From assembly GCA_041649175.1 (NCBI GenBank), contig JBAZNR010000001.1, positions 847,497-911,496 of the forward strand: a DNA stretch of 64,000 nucleotides, given 5' to 3'. The notes under the pieces are model-generated. The model did no database searches. It had not been told where the DNA came from and worked only from the letters and a program-made list of their open reading frames with translations. This DNA comes from Candidatus Omnitrophota bacterium. Lineage in GTDB: Bacteria; Omnitrophota; Gorgyraeia; Zapsychrales; JBAZNR01. Each line of letters opens with the position of its first letter. Position 1 is the stretch's first letter. Below, piece by piece: positions 5,658-34,315 of the stretch. A program made the translations under genes and the position numbers.

Positions 5658-5996
5658 CTTGATTTCCTCTTTATTGGTTGAAAAAGACATCGGGTAATTT
5701 CGGGACCTTCCATGACAGGGAGAAGACAAGGTCAAAAGCAGGGTTATTGTATTATGGAATTTCTGTTCGTGCAAGGATAATTTGGTTAAAAAGAGCCTTA
5801 CTTAAAGTGCTTTTTGAGTTCTTGGCAGAAAATTTGGAAGAACAAAGTCAAATATTGCCTTTCTCCCATTGGTTTTAAGGCCGTCATAAGCTATGCGTAA
5901 GTCAATAAAGAGGTTTTTTAAGTTGAACGAAACCCATAAGTTAACTAAAATGATAAACAATATATAGGAAACGTTCAAAGAAAACGGGTCTATCGC

Positions 5997-8710: not shown

Positions 8711-8795
8711 GCGGAAGTGGCGGAATTGGTATACGCGTACGTCTCAGAAGCGTATGGGGAAACCCGTGAGAGTTCAAGTCTCTCCTTCCGCACCA
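8711..8795 (+). tRNA. tRNA-Leu (anticodon CAG), type II with long variable arm, CCA encoded
   Basis: Acceptor stem GCGGAAG/CTTCCGC; anticodon stem TACGT/GCGTA with loop CTCAGAA, giving anticodon CAG; variable arm TGGGGAAACCCGTGA; T-arm GAGAG-TTCAAGT-CTCTC; 3' ACCA. Confidence 0.9.
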
Positions 8796-15006: not shown

Positions 15007-15399
15007 GGGGGTGAAATGGTCTCGACTTGAGTTCGACGCTATTTAGGTGGCATGCCGGGGAAGCTTGGTCGGCCCCGATATCAATCCAAGCACACATAAA
15101 CGCAAATAACGACGCGTTCATTGCAGAGGCCGAGGCTATCGCCAACGGCGCTGCAACAGTTGCCGTCTAATAACACGGCACCTTCTTATCTTACTTCGCC
15201 TGCGGGTGGGTAAGAAGCCGATAGCAGGATAGTGGTTGTTTACGCTTTTTAAATAACCATGAAATTCTAAGAAGCTAGTTCTGCCGACATTTGTTTGTTT
15301 GCAGGGAAGCGGAATGAAGTTTCAAAAAACAAAATAAGCATGTAGAGGCCTTTATGGTGTAATTCAAGGACCGGGGTTCGATTCCCCGCACCTCCACCA
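15007..15399 (+). ncRNA. ssrA: tmRNA (SsrA), transfer-messenger RNA
   Basis: 5' GGGGGUG pairs with 3' CACCUCC-A-CCA to form the tRNA-like acceptor stem. The 3' T-arm is GGACCGGGGUUCGAUUCCCCG. An internal tag reading frame (...GCAAAUAACGACGCG...GUUGCCGUC UAAUAA, peptide ending ...AATVAV) closes with tandem stops. smpB lies 5 kb away. Confidence 0.9.
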
Positions 15400-18712: not shown

Positions 18713-20092
18713 ATGAAAGTATTGCTTAGAAGTGTTTGCGTAGTGCTTTTTTTGACAATTTTTCTATCGTGGCCTGTCGGAGCCGAAACAATAGAAGACA
18801 TTAAAGTGATGATGGATCAGATGAAAACAGATTATGAAACACGCATCAAAGAATTAGAAGGGAAAGTTGAGGCGCTGGGTGTTCAACAAAAAAAGGATAG
18901 CGCCAAGATCAGTGAAGTCGCAACAAAGCACGAAGAACAAGTTGCTCAAATAGAGCAAAAAATCGAAAACACAGCGCTGGATGTTGAATACGTAGGCCGC
19001 GATAAAGCTCCGGTTGGTCGAGGTGGCCTTCTGGTAAAAAATCCTTTTGGTTTTGGAAATGTGTCAGTGGGCGGCTACGTGGATCTGGAGTATGGTGATT
19101 TTGAAAATACCAATTCTGCTTTTACTCAACATCGCTGGGTTATTAATATTGGCGCATTTCCGCACGAGCGTTTACGCTTTAACTCGGAACTTGAAATCGA
19201 ATATGGCGGCCCTAACGTGCCCAATGCGGACGGAGAAGTTAAGGTGGAGCAAGCTTATGTGGATTATATGATCTCTAATCCGATCAATTTAAGGGCCGGC
19301 GCTATTTTAGTTCCGTTCGGCAGGTATAATCTTTATCATGATTCTGATCTGCAAAATTTGACCGATCGTCCGATCATGGCCAAAGATATTATTCCAACGA
19401 CGTGGACCGAAGCCGGAGCGGGGATTTTTGGCCAATTTAATCCTGTCTTTGGAACGTATGAAGACCTGGATCTGAAATATGAACTTTACGTAGTAAATGG
19501 TTTGGATGCAGGATTTTCAGATACCGGATTAGGCGGCGGCCGCCCGGGTTTAAAGGCGGACAATAATGACGACAAATCGGTCGTCGGCCGTTTGGCCGTA
19601 AGTCCTTTTCTCAATCAAGAATTTGGTGTTAGCGGCTACTGGGGAGAATACAATACGACCAATGATGATATCGCTGGGGTTGGATTAGATGCGCTAACGA
19701 CATTTGGGCCGTTTGAACTGATCAATGAGTATGCCTATTTCAGTGTGGAAGAATCTGATAATGTTGATGTGGCTAATTTCTTTCAAGGTGCCTACAGCCA
19801 ATTGAACTATCATTTTTGGCCGAAATTCTTGGACCATTCATTCTTGGGACGAGGATTTCAAGATCCTAAGCTGACATTAGTCGGCCGTTATGATTGGGTT
19901 CTTATCGGGGATGATACCGATAGCTCATCTTCGGATAATAATGAAGAGACTCGTTGGACGATGGGCATTAATTATCGGCCCATTGATAATTTTGTATTTA
20001 AACTGGAATATCAATGGAATCAAACGACGGACGAGGCTTTGGAGCGCGGAGATAATAACGGGTTTCTTACTTCAGTGGCGATTGGATTCTAG
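18713..20092 (+). CDS. Putative outer-membrane beta-barrel porin (OprO/P-like) with N-terminal coiled-coil
   Basis: 459 aa. Signal peptide (...SWPVGA|ETIED), about 70 aa of heptad-like coiled coil, then alternating-hydrophobic beta-strand-rich sequence ending in ...SVAIGF (C-terminal Phe typical of OMPs). Good Shine-Dalgarno sequence GGAGGAAAAATG. Confidence 0.5.
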   Translation: MKVLLRSVCVVLFLTIFLSWPVGAETIEDIKVMMDQMKTDYETRIKELEGKVEALGVQQKKDSAKISEVATKHEEQVAQIEQKIENTALDVEYVGRDKAPVGRGGLLVKNPFGFGNVSVGGYVDLEYGDFENTNSAFTQHRWVINIGAFPHERLRFNSELEIEYGGPNVPNADGEVKVEQAYVDYMISNPINLRAGAILVPFGRYNLYHDSDLQNLTDRPIMAKDIIPTTWTEAGAGIFGQFNPVFGTYEDLDLKYELYVVNGLDAGFSDTGLGGGRPGLKADNNDDKSVVGRLAVSPFLNQEFGVSGYWGEYNTTNDDIAGVGLDALTTFGPFELINEYAYFSVEESDNVDVANFFQGAYSQLNYHFWPKFLDHSFLGRGFQDPKLTLVGRYDWVLIGDDTDSSSSDNNEETRWTMGINYRPIDNFVFKLEYQWNQTTDEALERGDNNGFLTSVAIGF

Positions 20093-20583
20093 TGGTTATC
20101 CCTCGGCAATTTAAAACGATCTCTTTTCAGGCTCTTTGTGTTCCGGCCATTGTTCTTGTGGTCGGGGCGCAGGGACTTGCCGCGGTCTATCTATCTATTG
20201 AGGAAGCGCAGCAAGCGATTTTCCCGGGAGAAACCTTTACCGTGGTTGAGCTTAATAAAAAACCGAAAATTTGGCGCGCGAGCCAAGGCGGGTTTTTCAT
20301 CATCGATAAAGTGATCGGAAAACATGAATGGATCACCTATGCGTTAGGCATAAATCCGGACGGAAGCATTCGTCAAATTGAGATCATGGAATACAGGGAA
20401 GCGTATGGCTTTGAAGTCTGTCAGAAAAAATGGCGAAAACAATTTATCGGAAAAACAAACACAGCGGCTCTAAAACTTAATGCGGATATCAAAAACATTA
20501 GCGGAGCAACATTATCCTGCCGCCACGTAACGGATGGCGTCAAAGACCTCATGGAGCTTTATGAAACTGTCCTTAAGAAATGA
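20092..20583 (+). CDS. FMN-binding-domain protein (FMN_bind, flavinylation substrate) with N-terminal signal/anchor
   Basis: 163 aa. N-terminal hydrophobic segment. C-terminal ...NISGATLSCRHV matches the [S/T]GAT flavinylation motif of NqrC/RnfG-type FMN_bind domains. GTG start overlaps the porin stop (TAGTG). Confidence 0.65.
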   Translation: MVIPRQFKTISFQALCVPAIVLVVGAQGLAAVYLSIEEAQQAIFPGETFTVVELNKKPKIWRASQGGFFIIDKVIGKHEWITYALGINPDGSIRQIEIMEYREAYGFEVCQKKWRKQFIGKTNTAALKLNADIKNISGATLSCRHVTDGVKDLMELYETVLKK

Positions 20584-21466
20584 GATCCGGCGCTGCCGTC
20601 CTTTGCTAGGGACGTTTGTGGAAATAACGGTAGAAAATGACGGGGCCGAAAAAGCGCAAAAGGCGATTGACCACGCTTTTTCGGCCCTTGAACGCATTCA
20701 TAAGCTCATGAGTTTCCATGCTGCTGACAGCGAAGTTTCGAAGCTTAATCGCTTGGCTTTTGATCAACCTGTTCGTGTCAGCCTGCCAACATATAATGTT
20801 CTTAAACAGGCTAAAAAAATCTATCAGCTTACCAAAGGTATTTTTGATATTGCTATTGCGCCGGAATTAATGCGTTGGAAATTTTTGCCGTGCCATTCAT
20901 TTCTTAAGAAACGTTCGAGATATTCCGGCAGTACGCGGGACATCAAACTTTTTCCGAACAGATCTGTTCGTTTCTTGCGTCCTTTGCAAATAGATTTAGG
21001 CGGCATTGCGAAAGGATTTGCCGTTGATGAAGCCGTGAGAGTTTTAAAAGAAAATGGCATCAAGAGCGGCTTGGTCAACGCGGGAGGAGATCTGCGTTGT
21101 TTTGGCGAGCAGTCACATTCCATTTGGATCCGTCATCCCAAAAACCATGATCAATTTATTTCTTTTCCTGCCGCCCAAAATCTTTCTCTCGCTACTTCGG
21201 CTAATTCTTATCAGGGGCGATGGAAAAAAACGGGATGCGTACACGTTGATGGACAAAGCCGCCAGCCGTTATTTCGCTCCTTTAGTGTTTCGGTATACGC
21301 TGGTTCATGCCTTATCGCTGACGCGTTGACCAAGGTTGTCCTTGCTATCGGGGAAAGGTCCAATCCTCTTCTGGAGAAGTTAAATGCCGCGGCTTTTATC
21401 GTTCAGGCGGATGACAAAATATTATGTTACAATAAAGAAACTTATGAAAAATTATATTCGTTTTAG
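20561..21466 (+). CDS. apbE: FAD:protein FMN transferase (ApbE family)
   Basis: About 301 aa. Conserved ApbE motifs LGTFVEI, GIFDIAIAPEL, DLGGIAKGFAVDEA and NAGGD. Start trimmed to the ATG at 20561, which overlaps the preceding gene by 23 nt. No obvious signal peptide. Confidence 0.85.
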   Translation: MKLSLRNEIRRCRPLLGTFVEITVENDGAEKAQKAIDHAFSALERIHKLMSFHAADSEVSKLNRLAFDQPVRVSLPTYNVLKQAKKIYQLTKGIFDIAIAPELMRWKFLPCHSFLKKRSRYSGSTRDIKLFPNRSVRFLRPLQIDLGGIAKGFAVDEAVRVLKENGIKSGLVNAGGDLRCFGEQSHSIWIRHPKNHDQFISFPAAQNLSLATSANSYQGRWKKTGCVHVDGQSRQPLFRSFSVSVYAGSCLIADALTKVVLAIGERSNPLLEKLNAAAFIVQADDKILCYNKETYEKLYSF

Positions 21467-21893
21467 CCCTAATTTAAGAAAATGGTTTTACGGCATATTC
21501 GGCCTATTATTTCTTTCCGGTTTTTTATGGATTGTGGTGCACAATTTTCTCGCCGGAGCTGATGATTTTGATGCGCCGCAAAGTTTTTTTAAAACCTGGC
21601 TTCTTAAGATTCACGGCGCCGGCGCAATGGCTTCTTTAGTCATATTCGGTGTCTTAATTCCGTCTCATATGCGCCGTGGTTGGCAACAAAATCGAAACAG
21701 AACGACCGCTGTTGTGATGATCCTAGCGTGCTTTCTATTAATTGTCAGCGGATACGCATTGTATTATTGCGGCAGTGAAGAATTGCGCTTGTTCGTTAGC
21801 AGTTTTCACTCTTGGGTGGGATGTGTATTGCCGCTTTTGCTCATCTGGCATATTGCCAGGGGGCGTAAAAGCAACTCTGCGCCGCGCGCGTGA
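21444..21893 (+). CDS. Small 4-TM histidine-rich membrane protein (DUF4405 / cytochrome-b-like candidate)
   Basis: Four predicted TM helices with conserved-looking His residues (VVHNF, KIHGAG, PSHMRRG, IWHIARG). Overlaps the end of apbE. Start choice uncertain (alternatives 21384 or 21411). Confidence 0.45.
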   Translation: MKNYIRFSPNLRKWFYGIFGLLFLSGFLWIVVHNFLAGADDFDAPQSFFKTWLLKIHGAGAMASLVIFGVLIPSHMRRGWQQNRNRTTAVVMILACFLLIVSGYALYYCGSEELRLFVSSFHSWVGCVLPLLLIWHIARGRKSNSAPRA

Positions 21894-21954: not shown

Positions 21955-21982
21955 TTGTAAATCTGAAATGTTTTGATATAAT
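21955..21982 (+). promoter_or_regulatory. sigma70-type promoter TTGTAA-16-TATAAT upstream of the otsA leader
   Basis: TTGTAA at 21955-21960 and TATAAT at 21977-21982. About 125 nt upstream of the otsA ATG, with two hairpins in between. Confidence 0.4.
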
Positions 21983-22047
21983 AAACGAGCAATTTAAAAA
22001 ATTTCACGGGTTCGGAAGAATTATTCTTTCGAAGGATTTTGATGGTC

Positions 22048-22089
22048 GGGCCGCCATCTGATAAACAATCAGATGGCGGCCCGTTTTTT
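22048..22089 (+). terminator. Intrinsic terminator hairpin (14-bp stem plus T6) located 18 nt upstream of the otsA Shine-Dalgarno sequence
   Basis: GGGCCGCCATCTGA-taaacaa-TCAGATGGCGGCCC-G-TTTTTT, followed by AGGAG and ATG at 22107. Confidence 0.65.
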
Positions 22090-22106
22090 AAAATAGGAGT
22101 TAAATA

Positions 22107-24353
22107 ATGAAAATAACTTTAAGGCTTATTTTTTCTTTGATCTTCATTGTGGCTATCGTTGCGTTTTCTTTTTCATTTTGGCAAGCACGCCAAGAAGAGG
22201 AGCGCCTAAAAAGCGAACTGGAGAGAAGAGCTAATATAGTTGCCGACAGCTTAAAAATGTCAGTTGAGCCGTTGCTGCTCATGGATGACCAGAAGCATCT
22301 TCATCGCATTGTTGATAAGTTTTCTAACAGAGAGAGGCTTGTTGGCATTGCTATCCACGATGTCCAGGAAAATCTCATTTTAGCTTCAGCCGATCTTCAG
22401 GCGCAATTGCAAAGAAATCCCAAAGTCATTGCGCCTAATATCCAAGAAGTTGAGAGATCGAACACCGAACGTGGCAAATTCATTAATTTTGGAAAACAGC
22501 AGTTGCACGCTTATTCGGTTCCGCTATTAGCAAATGAAAAAACCAGCCATGTGCTGACCATTTTTCATGACGCGGCCTATATCCAGGACCGGGTGGAGAG
22601 AATTTGGGTCAATAGTTTTTGGAGAGCTTTGATACAAGCTTTTCTGATCTCCCTTGCGACCATGATCCTTGTTTACCTTAATATCATGGCTCCGATTAAA
22701 AAAACAACCGAATGGATAAAGAAGATCAGGAAGGGGGAATCTCCGGAAAAGCTAGATCTTAAAGGACAACAACTTTTGGGGCCCTTGGCAAAAGAGATCA
22801 CCAAAATGGCTAAGAGTTTAGAGGGGGCTAGGCTTTCGGCGGAAGAAGAAGCGCGGTTGCGCCACACCACAGAATCTCTTTGGACACCAGAACGGTTAAA
22901 GGAATTTGTAAAAGATAAGTTGCAGGGACGGCCGCTTTTTGTGGTTTCAAACCGTGAGCCGTATATGCACATCAAAAAAGGAAAAGAGATCGGATACATT
23001 GTTCCGGCTAGCGGGCTTGTGACGGCGATCGAGCCGGTGTTAAAGGCCTGCGGGGGTACTTGGATCGCTCAGGGGAGCGGTGATGCCGATCGTGAGATGG
23101 TGGATAAAAATGATAAATTAAGAGTTCCTCCGGAAGAGCCGCAATATGTATTAAGGCGAATTTGGATCGAAAAAGAACTAGAAGACGGATTTTATTCCGG
23201 ATTTTCCAACGAAGGATTGTGGCCTCTTTGTCATATTGCGCATACTCGGCCCATTTTCAGAGAAAAAGATTGGTTGGCTTATATGGCGGTCAACGAACAA
23301 TTTGCTTCGGCCGTTATTAAGGAATTGGAAGGAATTCCCGAGCCTAATGTGCTTATTCAAGATTATCATTTTGCTTTGCTTCCCGGAATGATCAAGGCCC
23401 AGCGCCCGGACGCGCGAGTAGCTATTTTTTGGCATATTCCGTGGCCCAATCCGGAATCGTTCGGTATTTGCCCTTGGCAAAAAGAAATTTTACAGGGAAT
23501 GTTGGGCGCGGACATTGTTGGTTTTCACACCCAATTTCACTGTAATAATTTCGCGGAAACAGTAGACCGGTTTTTGGAATCTCGTATTGACTACGAACAT
23601 TTTACGGTTAATCGGGAGGGACATACGTCCTGGATCAAACCTTTCCCTATCAGCATTGATTCTAATTTAGCCGGCAATACTTCTCTGGAGATCAAAGAAA
23701 CAAAAGAAAGCCTCTTACGGAAATATAATATTCAAGCGGATTATATGGGAGTAGGCGTGGACCGTTTGGATTATACCAAAGGAATTGTTGAGAGGTTTCG
23801 TGCTGTTGAAAGTTTCTTGGAAAAAAATCCGCAATATGTCGGAAAGTTTACTTTTGTAGAGCTGGGAGCTCCTAGCCGGACGATGATCGCTAAGTATAAG
23901 GAGTTTGTGGATGATGTTATTCAGGTTACCGAAAAGATCAACGCGCGGTTTAGAACGAAAACATGGCAGCCGATCTTATTTTTAATGAAGCATCATAGTC
24001 ATGCGGAGATCTTACCGTTTTACAGAGCGGCCGATGTGTGTTTGGTAACTTCTTTGCATGACGGGATGAATTTAGTTGCTAAAGAATTCGTGTCTGCTCG
24101 CGATGATGAAAAGGGTGTTTTAGTTTTAAGCCAGTTTACCGGAGCGGCACGTGAATTGCGGGATGCCCTCATTGTTAATCCTTATGATATCGGACAAACT
24201 GCTGAGGCTATCAAAGTCGCTTTAGAAATGCCGGCATCAGAGCAGAAGGAAAGAATGGAGAGCATGAGAGGATTGCTTAAAGATCATAATATTTATCGTT
24301 GGGCCAGCGCGCTAGTCGGAGAGCTTGCCCAAGTGAGGTTGAACAAAACTTAA
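22107..24353 (+). CDS. otsA: Trehalose-6-phosphate synthase (GT20, OtsA) fused to an N-terminal TM - periplasmic sensor - TM - HAMP module
   Basis: 748 aa. Residues 1-270 carry TM1 ([19 protein letters not shown]), an about 145-aa extracytoplasmic domain, TM2, and a HAMP-like amphipathic linker ([16 protein letters not shown]...[14 protein letters not shown]). Residues 270-748 are a complete GT20 domain (FVVSNREPY..., GGLVTAIEP, ...[11 protein letters not shown]...). Confidence 0.85.
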
Positions 24354-24359
24354 AAAAAT

Positions 24360-25190
24360 ATGGTGAATTCTCAAAGAAGCCGAAAAAATTTCCTGGAGTA
24401 TCAGGATAATTTCAAAGACCTGTTTTGCAAAAGCGATCTCATGCTTTTTTTAGATTTTGACGGAACCCTTGCTGCTATTGTCGGCCATTACAAAAATGCC
24501 AGGATCCTTCAAAAAAGTAAAATGCTCTTGGAGCAAATAGCTAAAAGTTCTCAGTGTTATGTGGCGATCGTAAGCGGCCGGGCATTGCTTGATGTTAAAA
24601 AACGTGTTGGCTTGAAGAATGTCATATATGCAGGAAATCATGGTTTGGAAGTCGCGGGCCCCGGCCTCAAGCGCACATTATTTGTTAAGACGGATGTAAA
24701 GAAAGTATTAAGAAAAATAAAGACGGACCTGACAAAAAGTATCGGCAGAACAAAAGGTATTCTCATTGAAGATAAAACATTAACGCTTAGCGTTCATTAC
24801 CGTCGGGTTAGCCGTGAGGACCTGACTTTGTTTAAACAGATATTCTGGAAAAATGTTCGGCCCTATCTTAAAAGCCGGGCCATTGAGGTTCATGAAGGAA
24901 AGAAAGTTCTTGAGATCAAACCGATGGCTAAGTGGAACAAGGGCAGTATCGTTTTATGGCTTATCGGCCGTTTACAAAAAAATATCCGTCGCCGGAAATT
25001 CTTTCCTATTTTTATTGGTGATGATGCGACCGACGAAACTGCCTTTGCCGCTTTAAGAGATAAAGGGCTTTGTATCCGTGTCGGGCGCAGCAAGGCGTCA
25101 GCGGCGCAGTATCGTTTAAACAGCATTGATCACGTAGCGCAATTTTTAAAGATCATTTTAGATTCTACGAGCAGGCATACTCTCAAGTAA
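24360..25190 (+). CDS. otsB: Trehalose-6-phosphate phosphatase (HAD superfamily, OtsB)
   Basis: 276 aa. HAD motif I FLDFDGTLA, motif III/IV ...IGDDATDE. Directly downstream of otsA. Confidence 0.85.
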   Translation: MVNSQRSRKNFLEYQDNFKDLFCKSDLMLFLDFDGTLAAIVGHYKNARILQKSKMLLEQIAKSSQCYVAIVSGRALLDVKKRVGLKNVIYAGNHGLEVAGPGLKRTLFVKTDVKKVLRKIKTDLTKSIGRTKGILIEDKTLTLSVHYRRVSREDLTLFKQIFWKNVRPYLKSRAIEVHEGKKVLEIKPMAKWNKGSIVLWLIGRLQKNIRRRKFFPIFIGDDATDETAFAALRDKGLCIRVGRSKASAAQYRLNSIDHVAQFLKIILDSTSRHTLK

Positions 25191-25240: not shown

Positions 25241-27064
25241 ATGAACTATGCTGTAATCGGAAATTGTACGAGTGCTGCCTTGGTCAGCCCGGAATGTTCG
25301 ATCGATTGGCTGTGTCTGCCGTTTTTTGACTCACCGTCATTATTTGGCCGCCTTTTAGATGATCAAAAGGGAGGATACTTTCGTATTTGGGCGGAAGATA
25401 TCTTGGATGTAAAGCAGCAGTATGTGCATCGTTCTCCAATTTTGAAAACAAAATTCACGACAAAAAGCGGGATTTTTGAAGTGGCAGACTATATGCCTCG
25501 TTTTTTGGCGCATGACGGCGAAGTGATGTGCCCTCCAGAAATTCATCGCAATATCCATTTGCTTGAGGGCAATCCGCGCTTGATCGCCGAATTAAAGCCG
25601 TGCCCTAATTATGGGCTGGCGCCGGGAAGTTTTCTTGCGTCCCCAGATCACCTTAAGATCAATTCCACAAAAGGCGAGTATAACAGTTTTTATCTATATT
25701 CAAATTTAGATTTTGAAAAAATTTTGCAGGGAAAACCAATCGAGCTAAAGGCATCCTCGTATTTCGTGCTTTCCTATCATGAAAAATTAATACCCGTAAC
25801 GCAGGAACGGATCTATTTGGAATATGAGCGGACAAAAAGTTATTGGATGGACTGGGCTTATCGCGCTAAAGCTCCGGAGAAATACCGCGAGATCGTGCTT
25901 CGCTCGATTATTACTCTTAAGCTGCTGATGTTCCAAAGAACAGGGGCTTTTGTTGCGGCTCCGACTACATCATTGCCGGAGATCAAAGGCGGGACAAGGA
26001 ATTGGGATTATCGGTTTTGCTGGGTGCGGGACGCGAGTATGATCATTGATCTTTTTGCCCGCATCGGGCATGTTATTGCGTCGGAGAATTTCATCAAGTT
26101 CATTTTAGGAAGAATGTTATTAAAAAATGAAAACATCTCTGTTATGTACGGGATCAACGGTGAGCGTGATATTCGGGAACAAACACTTGATCATTTAAGC
26201 GGCCATGAAGGCTCCAGCCCGGTTAGGATCGGTAATGCGGCGCATCAACAGCGGCAAAATGATGTTTACGGCGAACTGATCGAAGCCATTTATTCGTATT
26301 ACATTATTAACGCTAGAAATCAGAAGAATTTTGATGAAGAACTTTGGACTGTTGTCCGTTCTTTAGCGAACCGTGCTATTGAAACATGGCAAGAGCCGGA
26401 TTGCGGTATTTGGGAACGCCGAGGGCCGATGCAGCATTTTGTTCATTCAAAAATGATGAACTGGGTGGCGCTGGACAGGGCTGTAAAGATCAGCCGGTTT
26501 ATCGGTAAAGAAAAAAATGTAAAGAGGTATTTAAAGGTTGCGGATGAAATTAAAAAAGATGTTTTAAAAAATGGCTGGGATCCGGAATTGAACAGTTTTG
26601 TCATGTTCTACGGCTCTAAAGACCTTGATGCGTCAAATCTTTTAATGCTGCATTACGGATTTTTAGACATCGCTGATCCGCGGATCGTTGGAACTGTTGA
26701 GGCGGCGTATCATAAACTTTTACGCGATGGATTTGTTATGCGCTATACAGCCGAAGACGAATTTGGCGTTCCTCAAAATGCGTTCATCGTTTGTACATTT
26801 TGGCTGATCGATGCGCTTTATCTGATCGGCCGAGAACAAGAAGCGCGGGAAATGTTCCATCGGGTGATAGGCTGTGCGAATAAATTTGGGCTTTTGTCTG
26901 AAACCATTGAACCTAAGACCGGTATGTTGAGAGGTAATTTCCCTCAGGGATATTCGCATCTGGCGTTGATCCAGACGGCGTTTCTTTTAGAAACAAATTA
27001 TCAGTGGAATGATGAAAACCGGCCTGTTCCTCCCAGTGATGCCGGCAGTAGCGAGAAAAATTGA
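25241..27064 (+). CDS. Glycoside hydrolase family 15 protein (glucoamylase / trehalase-type)
   Basis: 607 aa. GH15 signature ...NWDYRFCWVRDAS... and (alpha/alpha)6-barrel-like C-terminal region. Its position after otsAB suggests a trehalase role. Confidence 0.8.
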   Translation: MNYAVIGNCTSAALVSPECSIDWLCLPFFDSPSLFGRLLDDQKGGYFRIWAEDILDVKQQYVHRSPILKTKFTTKSGIFEVADYMPRFLAHDGEVMCPPEIHRNIHLLEGNPRLIAELKPCPNYGLAPGSFLASPDHLKINSTKGEYNSFYLYSNLDFEKILQGKPIELKASSYFVLSYHEKLIPVTQERIYLEYERTKSYWMDWAYRAKAPEKYREIVLRSIITLKLLMFQRTGAFVAAPTTSLPEIKGGTRNWDYRFCWVRDASMIIDLFARIGHVIASENFIKFILGRMLLKNENISVMYGINGERDIREQTLDHLSGHEGSSPVRIGNAAHQQRQNDVYGELIEAIYSYYIINARNQKNFDEELWTVVRSLANRAIETWQEPDCGIWERRGPMQHFVHSKMMNWVALDRAVKISRFIGKEKNVKRYLKVADEIKKDVLKNGWDPELNSFVMFYGSKDLDASNLLMLHYGFLDIADPRIVGTVEAAYHKLLRDGFVMRYTAEDEFGVPQNAFIVCTFWLIDALYLIGREQEAREMFHRVIGCANKFGLLSETIEPKTGMLRGNFPQGYSHLALIQTAFLLETNYQWNDENRPVPPSDAGSSEKN

Positions 27065-27226: not shown

Positions 27227-28309
27227 GTGATGGTTTTGGTTTTTTGTTTGCTTTTAATTGCGGGAATTATCGGAGGGCAGCTTTTTGATGTATCAGCATC
27301 TAAAGACGTATTGTCTTTCATTACATCGGTCTGCTTGGCTTATATCATGATCGAAGTGGGGCTCGAATTCTCCGTTGATAAAAGAAAAATAAGAAGCTAT
27401 GAATGGGATGCGTGCGTTGCATTTATTGCGGCCGCTCTTCCTACTCTTTTATGGTTTTTATATTTTAGCTTTGTGATGCAGCATCCTTGGCGTCCGTCGA
27501 TGGTTGCCGGGCTTTCTGCGGCTCCAACATCCGCTGGAGTCCTTTTCTCGATGTTGTTGGCCGCAGGATTGGGGGCAACATGGGTTTTTCAAAAAGCCCG
27601 GACATTGGCGGTGTTAGACGATCTAGCGACGATCTTATTGCTGACACCCTTAGGGATCATTATTCATGGATTTGAGATCAAGTCTATTATCGTTCTTGCC
27701 TTGATCGGATTATTTTTGTTCGCTTCTTTTCGGTGGCAAAACACAATTCTATGGCCCACGGGGGAAAAATGGCTTTTATTGTACGGATTTGTTTTAACAG
27801 CCATCGTCTTTTTTGCTAAAGAGACAACGAATATACATCTCGAGGTCCTTATTCCGGCCTTTATGTGGGGCTGCCTTGTTCATTTGCAGAAGAAACATCA
27901 CACGGAAAAATCTCCGCCACACAATATTTCTTTGGATTCCGCCGTTAAGGGGATTTTTATGATCCTCGTTGGGTTTTCTTTTCCGAGAATTGAGATCGGA
28001 GCCGTTCCTTGGGGCATGACGGTTGCTCATGTTGTCGCGCTTACCATATTATCCAATATAGGAAAATGTTTTTCCGCGTTTTGTTATCGTCGAGAAGCCT
28101 CTTTAAAAGAACGACTGGCTTTAAGTGTTGCGATGTTCCCGCGAGGCGAAGTAGGAGCCGCGGTTTTATTGATCGGCCTTGGATATGGTTTTGGCGGCTA
28201 TGTGAGCTCTTTGGCGCTTTTAAGTTTGGCACTTAATCTTGTTCTAACCGGCGTTTTTATCGGTGTTGTTATGCATCTTTTGCGAAAAGAACCAGGAACA
28301 TCCGTTTGA
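27227..28309 (+). CDS. Polytopic membrane protein, cation:proton antiporter (CPA/Kef-like) family candidate
   Basis: 360 aa, about 10 TM helices. A ...EVGLEFSVDKRK... segment resembles the conserved loop of Na+(K+)/H+ exchangers. Assignment by eye only. Confidence 0.4.
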   Translation: MMVLVFCLLLIAGIIGGQLFDVSASKDVLSFITSVCLAYIMIEVGLEFSVDKRKIRSYEWDACVAFIAAALPTLLWFLYFSFVMQHPWRPSMVAGLSAAPTSAGVLFSMLLAAGLGATWVFQKARTLAVLDDLATILLLTPLGIIIHGFEIKSIIVLALIGLFLFASFRWQNTILWPTGEKWLLLYGFVLTAIVFFAKETTNIHLEVLIPAFMWGCLVHLQKKHHTEKSPPHNISLDSAVKGIFMILVGFSFPRIEIGAVPWGMTVAHVVALTILSNIGKCFSAFCYRREASLKERLALSVAMFPRGEVGAAVLLIGLGYGFGGYVSSLALLSLALNLVLTGVFIGVVMHLLRKEPGTSV

Positions 28310-28537: not shown

Positions 28538-31500
28538 ATGCAAAGAATATCCCCTTGGCTAGCTTTTGCCGCTGTATTGTTGTCCTTTGTCTTTAATCAT
28601 TCCCATCTTGATGCGAAGACCGAAGCTGAGGTCGTTGCTCCCATTACGACTGTCACTTCCGAAGATATAAACAATTTACCAAGTTCTAGAGATCTTTTGG
28701 ATCTGACAGCCATCCTTTCTAACAACAATAATAGGGAAAGTACGCCGAGGCCGCAGATGTCTAATTATCCGAATCTTAGAGGTTTTAGCGGCCCTTCTGT
28801 TTTAGGTTGTCCTCACCAATCTCAATCGCGGATAAAAGACAGTGTAAATTGGAGCGGATTTGGAAGCGGGTTAGGGCCCAACTTTCATTATCAGCCGCCG
28901 GCTGCTTCCAACCAAGGACAGGATTTAAATACCATTGACCGGGAGTTGATTGAACGGGTTGGAATTAATTTAAGCCCGGACTTTAAGAAATATTCCGGCG
29001 GAGGAATGACGCAGATCGATCCTCCGGCGCAAACACAAACGCCGGGGTTGTCCGGCGATGATGACTATGAAATTAAATATACCGAAGAAGAATTAGCCGA
29101 GATGGCCGAAATCCCGACCGCGGAGGATATTCGCCGCATCAATACTGATCCCTTTGGCGAGATGGAACAGCGCAAGGCCGAGCGAGCATCATCGCAAGAA
29201 CAAGTACAGCAGCCGGTCGCATCAGGCCCTATTGCTCCGCAGGGCTTAACGCAAGAAGATGCCGAAAAACTTTCCGCCGCATTTTTAGTGACCGATGATG
29301 CGAACGTCAATCAAGAATATCAAAATAATTTACGAAACATTCAACAGCAGCATGTGGCTCAAGCCGAAGAAGAAAAACATAAACTGGCTCAGTATCACGA
29401 ACAAGAACAGCGCGCGCTTCAAATGGAGCAAGACCGTTTGGACCGTTTAGCGGCACTTGACCATGCGCAAGAAAATCGTGAAATCCAACAAGCTAGTCAA
29501 CGGGATAGCATGCGCGAAGAAGTTGTCCGGCGCACCCAGGAAATTTTGAATACGACGGAAGATTATATCAATAATGCGGGTTCTTATGATCCGTATATTT
29601 TAAAGTGGGTCAGCATTGCCGCCGAAATGCAGCATCAAACAAAGAAATTAGCGGATAGCTGTTTGCGCGATCAAATGCGCGCGCAAGCCAAATTAAAAGC
29701 GCTTGAAGAGTGGGAGCAGGCTCATGCCCAAGAAGTTGCCGAAAATCCTCACCTTAAAAAAGCTCTTTTGAATATGAAATTCGCGGCTCAAATGTTGTAT
29801 TGGGACGCGGAATTAGTCTGGCTTTCTACCAAAGAGCTTGTTTTATACGGCGCGATGATCGACGTGGGAACTTTTGTTTTTACCAGCATTGGGAAAGCTT
29901 TAGGTGTTGCCAAGACAGCCGCGCAAGAAGCGGCCATGCGTGTCACGCTTAATGCCGCGCGTAAACCAACCGCTTATGTCGTCGGCGATGTAATGGTGAA
30001 TGCTGCCGGAAAAGGAGCCGATGAAGCCGCGGCAAGGTTTATGGGAACAGCCGGCCAGCAAGGTGTTAGGCAGGTTGCTGGGGGAGCCGCAGGGCAAGCC
30101 GCCGGAACAGGGGCCGCCGGGCAAGCCGCCGGAGAACTTGGCGATTCGACCATCGGTCAGGGAATCCGCGACATGTTGTCCGGAAGAACGCTAATGGAAA
30201 AAGAAGTTAAGATGAATCTTATTACGGAAGGTGTTCAAGCAGAAATGAATCGCATGGCGCAGGTTGCCGTCGAGACAGGAATTCCTAAAGAAGAAGTTGC
30301 TGCGGCGGTAGCCGCAGGAGACATAGATGGGCTCGCCATCAAGATCATCGAAAAACTTGGTGGCAAGATCGTTTCGTTTAAAGACGCGCGGCCGATCTTT
30401 GAGATCTCAACGCGTGCTTTGGCCGGAACGGCGACCAGCGCCGACAAAGCGGTTTTAGAAGCGCTTATTCGCCAATCGGAAGCTCAAGGCGTGAACTTCT
30501 GGGATGATTTGGCGCGTCAGGGAATTTTCGGTAATGACGGTTTTCAGCCCATTGCTACAATGGATGTTATTGCGGCTTTAAAGCGTTTAGTTACCACAGG
30601 TGTTGAAGAGGCTTTAGATAAAACGGCAAGGCTCAGTCCGGAGCAGATCCAGAACGCTCTTCAAACATCTTTACAAGGCGCTTTAGACAAAACAGCGCAG
30701 ATCGCGGTTGATAAAGCGGATGATGTGGCGACGCAAATTTTAGATAATGCCTTTGATAAAACGGTTCAGTTAACGCCTCAGCAGTTAGATCAAATGATGG
30801 CAACCGTGATCGACGGGGTTTTAGATAAAACCGTGCGGCTTTCTCCGGAATATGCCGAGCAATTCGCCAAAACTGTTGTTGATAAATTCTTAGAAAAAAC
30901 ACAAATGATGTCGCAGCAAGAGGCCATGCGTTTCGCCGAGACCGTTGCCGAAAATATTTTGGAACACACGGCACAAATGACCGAGCGGGAAGCGGCACAG
31001 TTTTTTGAAACAGTGGTCGAGAAAATAATGGATAAAACTGTTCTTTTGACCGAAAAAGAGGTGAGCGCTTTTATTAACAATGTCACCGAAGAAGTCTTCG
31101 CCAAGACATTGCATTGGAGCAAAGAAGAAACCGTGAGATTAAGTCAAAGTATCATCGACCGCTTTCTTAGTTCGGCGGCACAGCGCGCTGAGGCCAATAG
31201 TTTGCGCATGGCGGAAACGATGATCGACGACGCACTTAAAACTACGACAAAACTTGACGCCAATCAAGCCTTGCGTTTGGCAGAGACAGTTATTGACGAT
31301 GTTGCCGGTAAAACAACCATCATGACACCCGGCGGGTCTTTAGCTTTGGCGCAAACCGTTATTGATGGTATTTTAGCGAAGACAACACAGCTTTCTCAAA
31401 CAGAAGCCGCCGCTTTGGCCCAGACGGTCATTGAAAACATTATGGAAAAAACCGTTAAGATGTCTCCTATTGAAGCGGCTGCTTTAGCCGAAACGGTGAT

Positions 31501-34315
31501 TGGCGATGTTCTGGCGCGTACGGTTCAGTTAAGCGAACGGCAAATAGCGGAATTAGCCCAAACGGTCGTTGATCAAGCACTTGCCAAGACGCTAAAATTA
31601 TCGGGGCAGGAAGCATCGCAATTTGCTAAAACCGTTGGAGAAAATGTTTTAGACCGCACCGTCATTGATGATCTTGTAGGTGTGGGCAGTCAAGAAGCGT
31701 TAGAAAAAATGCCATGGAGACAATTCATTAATCATATTTATGCCTTAAGCGAAAAAGAACAGCTAGAAGGATTAGTCCAATACGCTAAAAAGATCGGCTT
31801 AACCGATGAGGCTATTAATGTAGCAAAGTCCGCCAAGGAACCTGTTTTAAATCTTTTGCGTTCTATTATCGAGAAGGAAGGCAATATCATAATTGCCGGC
31901 GCGGAAGCGAATAAAATTTTAGCTTTATCCACGCGTGTTTTAAGAAATACCGCGACCGATGCCGATATGCGGTTTTTGCAAGAAATGGTCCAAAAGTACC
32001 AGGCGCAAGGATTAGATTATTTTGCGCAGTTAGCAAAACAAGGAACGCTTTCGGTGGCGGAAGGATTTCAAAATGTTGCACAAAAAGATGTTATTGAGGC
32101 GCTAAGGAATTTTGCGCAATCCCAAACGCGCCAAGCGCTTGCCGACACCGTTAAGATTCCGTCGACAGCGGCGGCAACATCAGCCGCAAATTCGGCTTTG
32201 GATGCAACATCTCTTAATCTTGGCCTTGAAGGTTTAAGCCGTACGGGCCTTAATTACCGCCTAGATTTTAATATTCCAAAACAAACGGGAGATCTTTGGC
32301 AAGCAGCGCCGCGGTTAGATTTCTCTCAATTTTCTTATGGATCGTTTTTAAGTGATGAAAAAATTGGCGCGGCGGCCGGGCTTTCCGGCCCGATCATTAC
32401 TAGCGGTTTGTTAAATAAGGAACCGATCGTAAGCGTTTTTGACGCGGCGGGTATTCCGGTCGGGTCCGTGACGGCGAAAGATGTCAAAAGTAATCCCGCA
32501 CTCACGAGAGATTTAATTGATTTTGCTCAAAACCGCAGCCTTGCGGGACAGCGTGATTATTTTCGTGATTGGTCTGGCGGATTAGGATATAACTTCGGGC
32601 CTAAAGATGTAACTGCCATTGATCTGCGGGGTTCAAATGCGGATTTTATGCGAAGCAACTTGGGCCGTATCCCGGGCGGTATTGATTACGCGTCGACATT
32701 GGTTCCGCAATTAGGTATGGGGCAAGATGATCTAGGTATTCTTTCCGACGGGATTAATCATCAGCTTGTCAATCGCGCCTCACCGGAAAACTTTTTTGAT
32801 CCTTTCCATTGTTGCGGTGTTGTTTATTTGGACGAGCCTGTTTTCTTAAGAGAGGTTTTAGCGCCTAAAAAAGAAACTCCGGCGGAAGCGATCGTGCCGA
32901 ACGATCCGCTTTACCTTGATCTCGTTCACCAAAAGAAAATGGGTGGTAAATCTGGGAAACCTGTTGTGGTTATGGGTAGCGGAATGAAGATGCAAGGTGA
33001 AATTTTAGGCGTCGTGTTAGGTGGCAGTGATAAAAATGAAGAAAAGATCAAAGACCAATGGGGTATTAGGGAAGTTGGCTTTACGCCAAAAACAAACGCG
33101 GATTCCGCGTGGAATTTGGTAGATGCTCAAAAGAAAAATGTCTTAATCGCGGTAATCGATTCCGGATTGGACCTCGAGCATCCCGACGGCCCGCAATATA
33201 TTTGGACAAATCCTAAAGAAATCCCGGACAATAATATCGATGATGATCAAAACGGCTACGTGGATGATGTCCATGGATGGAATTTTCTAGATAATAATAA
33301 TGATCTTAGGGATTTTAAAGGCCACGGAACAAATGTTTCCGGGATCATTGCCGCTAAAGCGGATAACGGTATTGGTATTGCCGGTATTAATCCGGGCGCG
33401 CAGATCATGGTTTTAAAAGTCGTTAATCCCGATGGAAGAGCGAACAGCATAAATATTTACCGGGCGTTTCGTTACGCGGCTGATCACGGAGCGCGTATTA
33501 TCAATATTTCCCTTGGCGATGTCGGTGTTTCAAAGTTAGAGCAGTTAGCTGTTAATTATGCGTACGCGAAAGGTGTTTTTATCGTGGCAGCTTCCGGTAA
33601 TGATAATGAATTTATCGGGCTTTACGGGCCTGCTTCGGCAAAACATGTTTTTTCCGTTGGAAGCCAAGATTTTGAGGGGACGCGCAGCACCGTTTCGAAT
33701 TGGGGGCCGAATTTAGGTCTCATTGCTCCGGGAGAACAGATCTATACGCTTCACTCGCAAGATGCTAAATGGGAAGGAAATCCGAAAGCCAAAGAAAAGT
33801 ATTATTTCAGAGTCTCCGGAACTTCTTTTTCCGCGCCGATCGTTGCGGCGACAGCGTCTTTGTTGTTAGCTAAAGATCCTAACCTAACCCATGATCAACT
33901 GCGCGGCATTTTGATCAACTCGGCCAAGGACATGAAGGACAGCGGTTGGGATGGTTTGACCGGAGGTGGTTCTTTGGATGCGGTCGCAGCACTAGAAGCA
34001 AACATTCAAGATGTTTTTGTGGTCCAGCTGACCGAATTAAGGATAAATCCCGAGGATAACAAGGAAGTTTCTTTGGATGTTTTTGGAACTGTTTATGGTG
34101 ATGTGAGTGATTTTATTGTTGAGCTCGGACGGGGAAGAAATCCGTCGGGCTGGACGAAGATCGCCGGTCCTTTTACGCAGCCGGCTAATGCCAACTGGTT
34201 GTGCCGTGTAAAAAAAGAACTACTTCGCGGTAGTAAAGACTGGAATGTCCGCATTACGGCGACAGATAAAAAAGGACAGACAAAAACAGCACAATCACTG
34301 GTAGTCGTAAAATAA
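28538..34315 (+). CDS. Giant secreted subtilisin-like serine protease (S8) with a long N-terminal coiled-coil/repeat region
   Basis: 1925 aa. Signal peptide; Gln-rich coiled-coil (about aa 220-400); Ala/Gly-rich tract; about 15 tandem 23-aa repeats (aa about 690-1045); a roughly 70-aa domain duplicated on both sides of the repeat array. The C-terminal S8 catalytic domain has Asp (VIDSGLD), His (HGTNVSGII) and Ser (GTSFSAPIVAA) triad motifs. Confidence 0.85.
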   Translation: MQRISPWLAFAAVLLSFVFNHSHLDAKTEAEVVAPITTVTSEDINNLPSSRDLLDLTAILSNNNNRESTPRPQMSNYPNLRGFSGPSVLGCPHQSQSRIKDSVNWSGFGSGLGPNFHYQPPAASNQGQDLNTIDRELIERVGINLSPDFKKYSGGGMTQIDPPAQTQTPGLSGDDDYEIKYTEEELAEMAEIPTAEDIRRINTDPFGEMEQRKAERASSQEQVQQPVASGPIAPQGLTQEDAEKLSAAFLVTDDANVNQEYQNNLRNIQQQHVAQAEEEKHKLAQYHEQEQRALQMEQDRLDRLAALDHAQENREIQQASQRDSMREEVVRRTQEILNTTEDYINNAGSYDPYILKWVSIAAEMQHQTKKLADSCLRDQMRAQAKLKALEEWEQAHAQEVAENPHLKKALLNMKFAAQMLYWDAELVWLSTKELVLYGAMIDVGTFVFTSIGKALGVAKTAAQEAAMRVTLNAARKPTAYVVGDVMVNAAGKGADEAAARFMGTAGQQGVRQVAGGAAGQAAGTGAAGQAAGELGDSTIGQGIRDMLSGRTLMEKEVKMNLITEGVQAEMNRMAQVAVETGIPKEEVAAAVAAGDIDGLAIKIIEKLGGKIVSFKDARPIFEISTRALAGTATSADKAVLEALIRQSEAQGVNFWDDLARQGIFGNDGFQPIATMDVIAALKRLVTTGVEEALDKTARLSPEQIQNALQTSLQGALDKTAQIAVDKADDVATQILDNAFDKTVQLTPQQLDQMMATVIDGVLDKTVRLSPEYAEQFAKTVVDKFLEKTQMMSQQEAMRFAETVAENILEHTAQMTEREAAQFFETVVEKIMDKTVLLTEKEVSAFINNVTEEVFAKTLHWSKEETVRLSQSIIDRFLSSAAQRAEANSLRMAETMIDDALKTTTKLDANQALRLAETVIDDVAGKTTIMTPGGSLALAQTVIDGILAKTTQLSQTEAAALAQTVIENIMEKTVKMSPIEAAALAETVIGDVLARTVQLSERQIAELAQTVVDQALAKTLKLSGQEASQFAKTVGENVLDRTVIDDLVGVGSQEALEKMPWRQFINHIYALSEKEQLEGLVQYAKKIGLTDEAINVAKSAKEPVLNLLRSIIEKEGNIIIAGAEANKILALSTRVLRNTATDADMRFLQEMVQKYQAQGLDYFAQLAKQGTLSVAEGFQNVAQKDVIEALRNFAQSQTRQALADTVKIPSTAAATSAANSALDATSLNLGLEGLSRTGLNYRLDFNIPKQTGDLWQAAPRLDFSQFSYGSFLSDEKIGAAAGLSGPIITSGLLNKEPIVSVFDAAGIPVGSVTAKDVKSNPALTRDLIDFAQNRSLAGQRDYFRDWSGGLGYNFGPKDVTAIDLRGSNADFMRSNLGRIPGGIDYASTLVPQLGMGQDDLGILSDGINHQLVNRASPENFFDPFHCCGVVYLDEPVFLREVLAPKKETPAEAIVPNDPLYLDLVHQKKMGGKSGKPVVVMGSGMKMQGEILGVVLGGSDKNEEKIKDQWGIREVGFTPKTNADSAWNLVDAQKKNVLIAVIDSGLDLEHPDGPQYIWTNPKEIPDNNIDDDQNGYVDDVHGWNFLDNNNDLRDFKGHGTNVSGIIAAKADNGIGIAGINPGAQIMVLKVVNPDGRANSINIYRAFRYAADHGARIINISLGDVGVSKLEQLAVNYAYAKGVFIVAASGNDNEFIGLYGPASAKHVFSVGSQDFEGTRSTVSNWGPNLGLIAPGEQIYTLHSQDAKWEGNPKAKEKYYFRVSGTSFSAPIVAATASLLLAKDPNLTHDQLRGILINSAKDMKDSGWDGLTGGGSLDAVAALEANIQDVFVVQLTELRINPEDNKEVSLDVFGTVYGDVSDFIVELGRGRNPSGWTKIAGPFTQPANANWLCRVKKELLRGSKDWNVRITATDKKGQTKTAQSLVVVK
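30600..31670 (+). repeat. Intragenic tandem array of about 15 degenerate 69-bp (23-aa) repeats, consensus phi-D-x-phi-L-D-K-T-x-x-L-S-x-x-E-A-x-x-phi-A-x-T-V
   Basis: Consecutive 23-residue units, e.g. IDGILAKTTQLSQTEAAALAQTV / IENIMEKTVKMSPIEAAALAETV / IGDVLARTVQLSERQIAELAQTV. Diverged at the DNA level, so not a recent amplification. Confidence 0.7.

Follow-up and report, generated by a model that had tools for sequence, protein, structure and literature searches.

A putative membrane-sensor trehalose-6-phosphate synthase fusion, conserved in uncultured phyla and linked to nhaA-I cation riboswitches

A sensor module fused to a GT20 domain

We analysed a stretch of 64,000 nucleotides (nt) from a Candidatus Omnitrophota bacterium (GenBank assembly GCA_041649175.1, contig JBAZNR010000001.1, positions 847,497-911,496 of the forward strand; hereafter the window) and found that its otsA gene encoded one long protein in which a transmembrane (TM) sensor and HAMP-like module was joined to a glycosyltransferase domain of family GT20, the family of the trehalose-6-phosphate synthase OtsA. 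This sensor-GT20 fusion was a real, conserved protein architecture, and the family carrying it was strongly tied to the nhaA-I class of cation riboswitches, one of which preceded the gene in the window. Signal-dependent control of OtsA activity by the fused module was the explanation that we favoured, with a probability of roughly 0.55. Such gating seemed plausible because the module appeared to be under purifying selection and carried HAMP signature residues, the linker behind it was almost invariant, and the catalytic site was intact in sequence.

The gene and its parts were as follows (window coordinates, with residues of the protein where applicable).

22095-22099, + strand: Shine-Dalgarno sequence AGGAG, read from the sequence, 7 nt 5' of the ATG
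22107-24353, + strand: sensor-HAMP-OtsA fusion gene, a single uninterrupted open reading frame (ORF) of 748 amino acids (aa)
22125-22181, + strand: TM1, residues 7-25, an uncleaved signal anchor (Kyte-Doolittle peak 2.54)
22182-22622, + strand: extracytoplasmic PAS/Cache-like, WalK-like sensor domain, residues 26-172 (147 aa), from profile and Foldseek matches
22623-22691, + strand: TM2, residues 173-195 (hydropathy 2.09), inside the continuous AlphaFold2 helix 157-208
22692-22841, + strand: HAMP-like helix-connector-helix, residues 196-245, from position, structure prediction and signature residues; sub-threshold in Pfam
22842-22934, + strand: almost invariant linker and short helix, residues 246-276, leading from HAMP AS2 to GT20 strand beta1 (conservation)
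22935-24329, + strand: GT20 (OtsA-type) catalytic domain, residues 277-741 (Pfam E 5.5e-114)

An initial annotation, made from the sequence alone, had described an otsA ORF continuous over 748 aa whose first 270 or so residues formed TM1, an extracytoplasmic domain of about 145 aa, TM2 and a HAMP-like linker. The ORF was indeed single, and these figures were right within a few residues. In 19-residue windows the hydropathy peaks lay at residues 7-25 and 175-193, and the scan revealed no further hydrophobic segment after residue 300 (maximum 1.07). Among 220 family members the median start of TM1 was residue 7. Basic residues (K2 and R6) stood before TM1 and seven Lys or Arg residues followed TM2. 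This placement fitted an N-in, loop-out, C-in topology, which would leave the catalytic domain in the cytoplasm, where uridine diphosphate (UDP)-glucose and glucose-6-phosphate occur.

A family of fusions in many phyla

The initial annotation had proposed a search for HAMP-GT20 fusions in other genomes, and many were found, conserved across many phyla. One genome per GTDB species was scanned with the conserved linker peptide; 147 genomes matched, and the locus counts given here cover 80 of these 147 loci. In 78 of the 80 the N-terminal module was in frame with GT20. Complete proteins of 732-764 aa were encoded by 66 loci, the rest being cut by contig ends or interrupted. The carriers belonged to Omnitrophota, Elusimicrobiota, Nitrospirota, Verrucomicrobiota, Ignavibacteriota, Bacteroidota, Acidobacteriota, Eisenbacteria and Melainabacteria, with one gammaproteobacterial genome in addition, and all that were found were metagenome-assembled genomes (MAGs). 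The protein searches agreed with this picture. Nearly all of the best 120 homologues, which came from Omnitrophota, Kiritimatiellia, Eisenbacteria and Nitrospirae, were about 750 aa long, with 97-100% coverage and 58-88% identity; five shorter ones had 79-82% coverage. The best 120 matches of a second search, seeded from other phyla, were likewise mostly proteins of about 750 aa, plus five of 810-931 aa.

Over 116 homologues the median identity was 60% for the N-terminal part and 73% for GT20. We read this pattern as purifying selection on the module. The module also seemed to be dedicated to its output. An exhaustive profile search with the N-terminal part, for which composition was known for the top 150 matches, gave 224 cluster representatives at E <= 1e-30. 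Among the 48 top representatives that extended more than 40 residues past the module, 44 ran into GT20 and the other four had Arg/Pro/Ser-rich tails typical of frameshifted translations, so that no other output domain was met in these 48. Weaker matches were numerous (967 at E <= 1e-10 and 3922 at E <= 1e-3) and presumably included WalK-like kinases. When the N-terminal 272 aa were searched by themselves, only short fragments at contig ends came back, which were uninformative about other outputs.

Several members departed from the common length. A duplicated periplasmic domain was verified in P0162 and deduced from length in P0360 and P0361 (913-931 aa); P0372 (810 aa) had an ectodomain of the dCache_3 type; in P0155 a short loop replaced the ectodomain, leaving TM1-TM2-HAMP-linker-GT20; and P0108 (894 aa) carried an additional low-molecular-weight phosphatase domain (PF01451). 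The duplicated, dCache_3 and short-loop variants all kept TM2-HAMP-linker-GT20, and such swapping of ectodomains in front of a retained TM2-HAMP-linker supported a modular receptor design.

A WalK-type input module

Joining of a kinase-type input architecture to a complete GT20 domain, as first suggested, was borne out by Pfam, by the NCBIfam WalK match and by the predicted layout. AlphaFold2 was run on the full-length protein with an alignment of 63 sequences, and on the N-terminal part alone with 24 sequences. The two models (predicted local distance difference test, pLDDT, 81 and 83, respectively) had the same layout. TM1 lay within a long helix (2-58), followed by an alpha/beta domain at 62-155 that consisted of a helix (62-72), strands 78-85 and 90-93, two helices and strands within 122-155. 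The chain returned through the membrane in helix 157-208 (TM2), and a 9-residue loop (209-217) then led into a helix that began at 218 and ended at about 254-258; after a short break came helix 261-272 and then the GT-B fold, with the first GT20 strand from 277.

Positions 7-258 of the NCBIfam WalK model aligned to residues 3-250 (E 5.8e-13), and the sequence profile found WalK ectodomains in the PDB (5is1, E 3.1e-4; 4ywz, 3.4e-3; 7dud, 4e-3). In Foldseek against the PDB the top match was the full-length WalK model 9a5d_A (283 aligned columns, E 7e-11), followed by the WalK ectodomain crystals 4ywz, 7dud and 5is1 (for 4ywz_B, E 2.5e-7, TM-score 0.74, root-mean-square deviation 3.3 A), with KinD and then generic PAS domains lower down. 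Since sequence profile and fold independently found WalK ectodomains, the N-terminal module is a remote homologue of the WalK-type TM1-PAS/Cache-TM2-HAMP input module. Domain models matched by family members included SMP_2/YtjB (24 of 63), sCache_4 (10 of 63) and dCache models. Beyond the input module neither Pfam nor NCBIfam gave a match to HisKA/DHp or HATPase_c, and residues 277-748 were GT20. A histidine kinase was rejected on the absence of the DHp and ATPase domains.

The segment at residues 196-245 was HAMP-like and probably a divergent true HAMP. It began at the cytoplasmic end of TM2 and formed a helix-connector-helix in both AlphaFold2 models. Of the HAMP signature, P196 and E230 were invariant and G210 nearly so in a set reaching down to 31% identity. 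An hhalign alignment to Af1503 HAMP placed these three residues opposite its own signature Pro, Gly and Glu, in register (E 3.9e-4). Hydrophobic periodicity peaked at 3.5 residues in both helices.

The linker into the active site

Residues 245-266 were the best conserved stretch of the whole N-terminal half. Residues E248, A249, L251, R252, W259, T260, R263 and L264 were invariant even at 31-40% overall N-terminal identity, including Bacteroidota-type members with 31% identity elsewhere in the N-terminal part, and column conservation was 0.79 in the linker versus 0.80 in GT20. Solved OtsA and Tps1 structures had no counterpart of this linker, as PDB matches began at about position 272-277 or later. 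The distance from its end to strand beta1 (LFVVSNR) was five residues, and the last residue of that strand was R283. In the BLASTP alignment R283 corresponded to R9 of E. coli OtsA, which binds the phosphate of glucose-6-phosphate in the published structures. An invariant connector between the HAMP output helix and an active-site strand resembles what one would expect of a transmission element, as far as conservation can suggest a function.

An OtsA-type catalytic domain

The Pfam model Glyco_transf_20 (PF00982) scored 381.9 bits against a cut-off of 32.5 (E 5.5e-114), with residues 278-741 covering profile positions 4-472 of 473, and profile matches to OtsA and Tps1 in the PDB reached E 1e-95. 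BLASTP aligned residues 277-743 with E. coli OtsA at 32% identity over 485 alignment columns; the E. coli sequence used was identical to PDB 2wtx/1uqt over 455 residues. The catalytic and substrate-binding positions were those of the 1GZ5 and 1UQU structures. All twelve were invariant in the 63 family members: R283, G303, W319, Y363, W372 and D419 corresponded to E. coli R9, G22, W40, Y76, W85 and D130, and H443, R553, K558, R591, D652 and E660 to H154, R262, K267, R300, D361 and E369. The catalytic domain was thus predicted to be intact as an OtsA-type trehalose-6-phosphate synthase.

The clade also had invariant Cys and His residues of its own, namely C375, H376, H379, C455, H474, H478, C479 and C645 (window positions 23229-23243, 23469-23471, 23526-23543 and 24039-24041, + strand). 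E. coli OtsA lacked them at the aligned positions except for the shared H376, and H474 also occurred in Candida Tps1. Examples were the clade segment where E. coli reads LWPAFHYRLD and the clade motif HTQFHCNNF. These residues might make up a metal-binding site or one that is sensitive to redox state.

A cation riboswitch in the otsA leader

The region 5' of the fusion gene contained the following elements.

21955-21982, + strand: promoter-like site TTGTAA-16 nt-TATAAT with extended TG, 10 of 12 matches in a consensus scan, which was weak evidence
22008-22059, + strand: nhaA-I riboswitch aptamer, Rfam RF03057 (Li+-I / Na+-II class), 50.2 bits against a gathering threshold of 37, full model 1-55
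22047-22093, + strand: intrinsic terminator with a 16-bp stem, 11 G-C pairs and a T-run, serving as the expression platform

The RF03057 match had E 5.9e-7 for the whole window, and P1, P2 and the conserved GGGU, AGG and GGUCGGGCCGCC nucleotides were present. No second match to this family occurred in the window, so that its Na+/H+ exchanger gene had no riboswitch of its own in front. The 5' arm of the terminator consisted of the conserved loop and the P2 3' arm of the aptamer, and the minimum free energy fold of the unliganded leader comprised P1 and the terminator (-47 kcal/mol, z = -8.15). Because the aptamer overlapped the terminator and the unliganded fold favoured the latter, ligand binding should prevent termination, as in an ON switch. 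From the end of the terminator stem (22083) to the ATG there were only about 24 nt, which left no room for another promoter, and transcription of otsA must therefore read through. The promoter-like site upstream was the likely start of the leader transcript, to judge from its sequence; it was kept in a close relative (L001, one of the related loci), and the promoter scan as a whole was not enriched over shuffles (18 sites found versus 13.5 expected). The folding model taken together with the gene order suggests that the leader is probably a cation-induced ON switch for otsA, otsB, a GH15 gene and the Na+/H+ exchanger gene.

The association was not confined to the window. Riboswitches were counted only as exact matches to a 12-nt core or as matches at the Rfam threshold, since a core search with two mismatches was too noisy in loci of high guanine-cytosine (GC) content. 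Of the 80 loci, 36 carried the exact core upstream in the same orientation, with about 0.1 chance matches expected; in 18 it lay directly before the fused otsA and in others before an upstream gene of the cluster. RF03057 scored above gathering in all 12 related loci tested, where 13 further matches were found. Second copies lay upstream at L006:3871, L016:3005, L018:2087, L019:4849 and L079:4876, each before an ORF of 348-437 aa. In L006, L018 and L019 the copy directly preceded an ORF at the position of a Na+/H+ exchanger homologue, whereas no match to an exchanger was obtained for the ORFs in L016 and L079. It thus appears that riboswitches control the exchanger and trehalose genes as one regulon.

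Previous work identified nhaA-I RNAs as Li+-I riboswitches (White et al. 2022, PMC9646797). Rare variants bearing a terminator respond to Na+ instead (Na+-II) and have C rather than U at one position (AGCCGGGCC); the study found them in Deltaproteobacteria alone, in front of unknown genes, and a C54U mutant of Na+-II responded to Li+, Na+ and NH4+ (PMC9646797). In the same study otsA followed 16 of 944 nhaA-I RNAs and the authors speculated about either Li+ or an osmotic connection, but otsA was not mentioned as a membrane-sensor fusion (PMC9646797). Mapped from the construct sequences of that paper, the discriminator of the window RNA was the U of GGUCGGGCC at position 22046, a base of the Li+-I type. 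The otsA-linked nhaA-I RNAs looked like a distinct subgroup with a U discriminator, a P1 start of GGGU[CU][CU] and a terminator hairpin overlapping the core in 30 of 40 copies; among loci L001-L079, examples were L001:5901-5951, L016:2971-3020 and 5902-5951, and L030:5443-5496.

The fused sensor had initially been proposed as a one-component mechanism of control. Its architecture held, but sole control did not, given an nhaA-I riboswitch with terminator in the leader and an exchanger gene at the operon end. The position of this riboswitch in the otsA leader suggests that control is at least two-tiered.

Weighing signal-dependent control against alternatives

A number of results weighed against control of the enzyme by its fused module. 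The Pfam HAMP model (PF00672) reached 14.5 bits at residues 190-239, under its cut-off of 25, and only 15 of the 63 relatives matched it at E < 0.1 (best 1.8e-4). The initial annotation had named TM helices and a HAMP within residues 1-270 as the decisive features; the two TM segments were found and HAMP-like features were present, but the Pfam threshold was not reached. The hhalign probability against Af1503 HAMP was only 36%. Model confidence was lowest over HAMP and linker (pLDDT 54-67 in the full-length model, whose predicted TM-score, pTM, was 0.62), leaving the relative position of HAMP and GT20 undefined. No ligand pocket was identified in the ectodomain, the conserved residues of which looked structural. 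On the catalytic side the NCBIfam OtsA equivalog model TIGR02400 gave 424.6 bits, short of its cut-off of 564.85. Finally, no cultured carrier appeared in the best 120 matches of the two homologue searches or in the 80 of 147 GTDB loci.

The sub-threshold HAMP score and the want of a recognisable pocket would also suit a membrane tether or scaffold, in which the module holds OtsA as a dimer at the inner membrane face and transmits no signal. OtsA would then be placed near the membrane, a transporter or a partner, and the HAMP-like segment would be a passive coiled-coil spacer retained from a kinase ancestor. It is in keeping with a tether that the WalK ectodomain acts partly via partner proteins (the best structural match, PDB 9a5d, is a WalK-YycH model) and that the riboswitch already provides regulation. 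However, one TM helix would be enough for an anchor, which needs neither a folded ectodomain of 147 aa nor TM2 nor a helix-connector-helix. Yet ectodomain, TM2 and HAMP, with P196 and E230 invariant and G210 nearly so, were kept across at least 8 phyla, and the linker into GT20 was as conserved as GT20 itself. The variants that duplicate, swap (dCache_3) or delete the sensor while keeping TM2-HAMP-linker are, moreover, typical of signalling receptors. We consider a mere tether unlikely.

The enzyme behind the module might also have a different GT20 product, for instance glucosylglycerol-phosphate or some other sugar phosphate, in which case the compatible solute under control would not be trehalose. 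Besides the OtsA equivalog, the model for bifunctional trehalose-6-phosphate synthase/phosphatase (PRK14501) stayed under its cut-off (479.6 versus 634 bits), the GgpS model matched as well (294.7 bits), and the clade-specific Cys and His residues described above distinguish the domain from E. coli OtsA. Because the OtsA equivalog cut-off was not reached, we place the fused GT20, by its sequence, in a divergent clade of the OtsA family. Nevertheless, the OtsA models scored well over GgpS; R283, Y363 and R591, which bind the phosphate of glucose-6-phosphate, and all UDP-glucose-binding residues were kept; and 6 nt downstream lay a trehalose-phosphatase gene over its equivalog cut-off (160.7 versus 68 bits), followed by a TREH_N/GH15 gene. 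A different product is therefore improbable, and OtsA-type synthesis remains our reading of the domain.

That a frameshift, mis-assembly or chimeric contig had joined a kinase sensor fragment to otsA is scarcely conceivable, given an identical 748-aa ORF in an independent Logan assembly contig, over 220 complete homologues, about 750 aa long and drawn from many samples and phyla, the in-frame joining of module and GT20 at 78 of the 80 loci, and a GC content that was even across the gene with no discontinuity at the sensor/GT20 junction. Stop codons occurred 5' of the fusion gene in all three frames; with the riboswitch, terminator and Shine-Dalgarno sequence in the upstream region, they ruled out a split-off upstream sensor gene and completed the case against a frameshift or chimera. 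The identical protein was also recorded on a 1.2-Mb Candidatus Omnitrophota MAG contig. The fusion was accordingly genuine, as first described, with nothing splitting the sensor from otsA.

Operon and neighbouring genes

Downstream of the fusion gene three further genes followed on the same strand.

24360-25190, + strand: otsB, trehalose-6-phosphate phosphatase, 6 nt after otsA (TIGR00685, 160.7 bits versus 68; Pfam Trehalose_PPase, E 6e-42)
25241-27064, + strand: GH15 hydrolase with a trehalase-like N-terminal domain (Pfam GH15, E 3e-63; TREH_N, E 1e-14)
27227-28309, + strand: membrane protein of the Na+/H+ exchanger family (Pfam PF00999, E 8.7e-15)

Pfam and NCBIfam confirmed the previously noted succession of otsB and a GH15 hydrolase behind otsA; the NCBIfam TreH1 score of the GH15 protein was 426 bits, below the cut-off of 820. 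The exchanger gene was probably the last gene of an operon otsA-otsB-GH15-Na+/H+ exchanger. Of the 80 related loci, 50 had an otsB homologue behind the fusion gene in the same orientation, and GH15 was found in about 16, mostly in close Omnitrophota relatives. A Na+/H+ exchanger homologue adjoined the fused otsA in eight loci and was upstream of it in seven of these.

On the 5' side of otsA (18713-21893, + strand) were genes for a phosphate-selective-type porin, an FMN-binding protein, an ApbE flavin transferase and a cytochrome b561-like membrane protein, and the gap between this cluster and otsA contained the riboswitch leader. Beyond the exchanger gene, a 1925-aa ORF (28538-34315, + strand) had a long repetitive helical region rich in Ala, Glu and Gln and, in its C-terminal part, subtilisin-like Asp/His/Ser motifs recognised by eye (DSGLD, HGTNVSG, SGTSFSAP). 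The Rfam scan of the window also returned a tmRNA (15007-15399, + strand, 167 bits) and a tRNA (8711-8792, + strand, 57 bits). In two related loci other riboswitches lay a few kilobases upstream of the fused otsA, a c-di-GMP-I riboswitch at L009:733-810 (+ strand) and a 2dG-II purine-type riboswitch at L025:1622-1739 (+ strand).

A proposed two-tier mechanism

With signal-dependent control as the working model, the protein would be a membrane-anchored receptor enzyme made of a WalK-type input module (the N-terminal 245 residues), a linker of about 30 residues, and OtsA in the place of the kinase core. By analogy with other HAMP receptors it would form a parallel dimer at the inner membrane. 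An envelope, osmotic or ionic cue may be sensed by the ectodomain or the TM helices, and the signal would alter the packing of the HAMP helices. The linker would transmit this change to the N-lobe of GT20, turning trehalose-6-phosphate synthesis on or off with no need for new gene expression. OtsB would complete trehalose, a stress-protective sugar that the GH15 enzyme could degrade later. At the RNA level, rising cytoplasmic Li+ or Na+ would let the aptamer outcompete the terminator, giving more enzyme and more Na+/H+ exchanger. Both layers together would let the cell respond to salt or osmotic stress in two tiers. Within this scheme the sequences establish the conserved architecture, an intact active site and the riboswitch with its terminator; we infer dimerisation, that the activity is regulated, what the signal is and which cation is sensed.

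A broader proposal is that these proteins are the first recognised family of transmembrane receptors with a compatible-solute glycosyltransferase as output, in which a WalK-like sensor-HAMP module would switch OtsA allosterically through its own invariant linker, acting together with a terminator-bearing nhaA-I riboswitch subtype from outside Deltaproteobacteria that has a U discriminator. The two would build a fast AND-like osmostress circuit, common in uncultured phyla, in which trehalose synthesis requires both cytoplasmic Na+ or Li+ as input at the RNA level and an extracytoplasmic or membrane signal as input at the protein level. We put this forward tentatively, at somewhat less than even odds.

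If the proposed gating were true, the HAMP output mechanism could drive a GT-B glycosyltransferase, and trehalose-6-phosphate formation would offer a simple, assayable read-out for transmembrane signalling. An envelope signal would reach compatible-solute synthesis without transcription, and this layer would be added to an ion-sensing riboswitch that the literature had already connected with otsA but not explained. Current annotation hides the sensor part of a family that is widespread in uncultured phyla, because the full-length protein was named 'trehalose-6-phosphate synthase' in every database entry met, and only one, from JGI, added a membrane domain to the name ('uncharacterized membrane protein affecting hemolysin expression').

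Comparison with known systems

To our knowledge, transmembrane HAMP receptors have been known almost only with signalling outputs such as kinases, chemoreceptor arrays, nucleotide cyclases and phosphatases. No published HAMP/TM-GT20 fusion was found in the open-access literature and bioRxiv. The sensor-OtsA fusion was thus apparently undescribed so far, whereas the link between otsA and the riboswitch was already published (PMC9646797).

The closest relatives of the input module were the WalK (YycG) kinases, which have the same order of TM1, an extracytoplasmic PAS/Cache-like domain of about 150 aa, TM2 and HAMP. Identity to the WalK module was only about 15-17%. Unlike these kinases, the fusion lacked a cytoplasmic PAS as well as DHp (HisKA) and HATPase domains, involved neither phosphotransfer nor a response regulator, and had a GT-B glycosyltransferase as its output. 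With soluble OtsA and Tps1 (E. coli 1uqt/1gz5/2wtx, Candida 5hut, Mycobacterium 5jij) it had in common the complete GT20 fold, the catalytic residues and an adjacent otsB, but it added 276 N-terminal residues that place the enzyme in the membrane. E. coli OtsA, in addition, lacked the clade-invariant C375, H379, C455, H474, H478 and C479 at the aligned positions.

Receptor enzymes with HAMP and non-kinase outputs include the mycobacterial HAMP-adenylyl cyclase Rv3645, HAMP-GGDEF proteins and the HAMP-PP2C phosphatase SiaA, the last being a weak NCBIfam match of the window protein. They follow the same logic, as a membrane receptor and HAMP are coupled to a catalytic domain in one polypeptide. 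However, what their outputs produce or remove is a signalling molecule or a phosphoryl group, whereas the output of the fusion was a biosynthetic enzyme of central stress metabolism. Cyanobacterial GgpS is a soluble GT20 enzyme of compatible-solute synthesis that is switched post-translationally by salt, reportedly through ionic strength. It is an earlier example of a compatible-solute enzyme controlled directly at the biochemical level, although it has no fused transmembrane sensor.

At the RNA level, the leader in the window shared with Li+-I riboswitches the U discriminator and a full RF03057 match with all conserved nucleotides. With the validated Na+-II riboswitch of D. propionicus it shared a similar P1 (GGGUYCGG...CCGRAGG) and a terminator that overlapped the aptamer in exactly the same way. 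The published Na+-II RNAs have a C discriminator and come from Deltaproteobacteria, whereas RNAs of the window type had U and preceded the fused otsA in Omnitrophota, Elusimicrobiota and other phyla.

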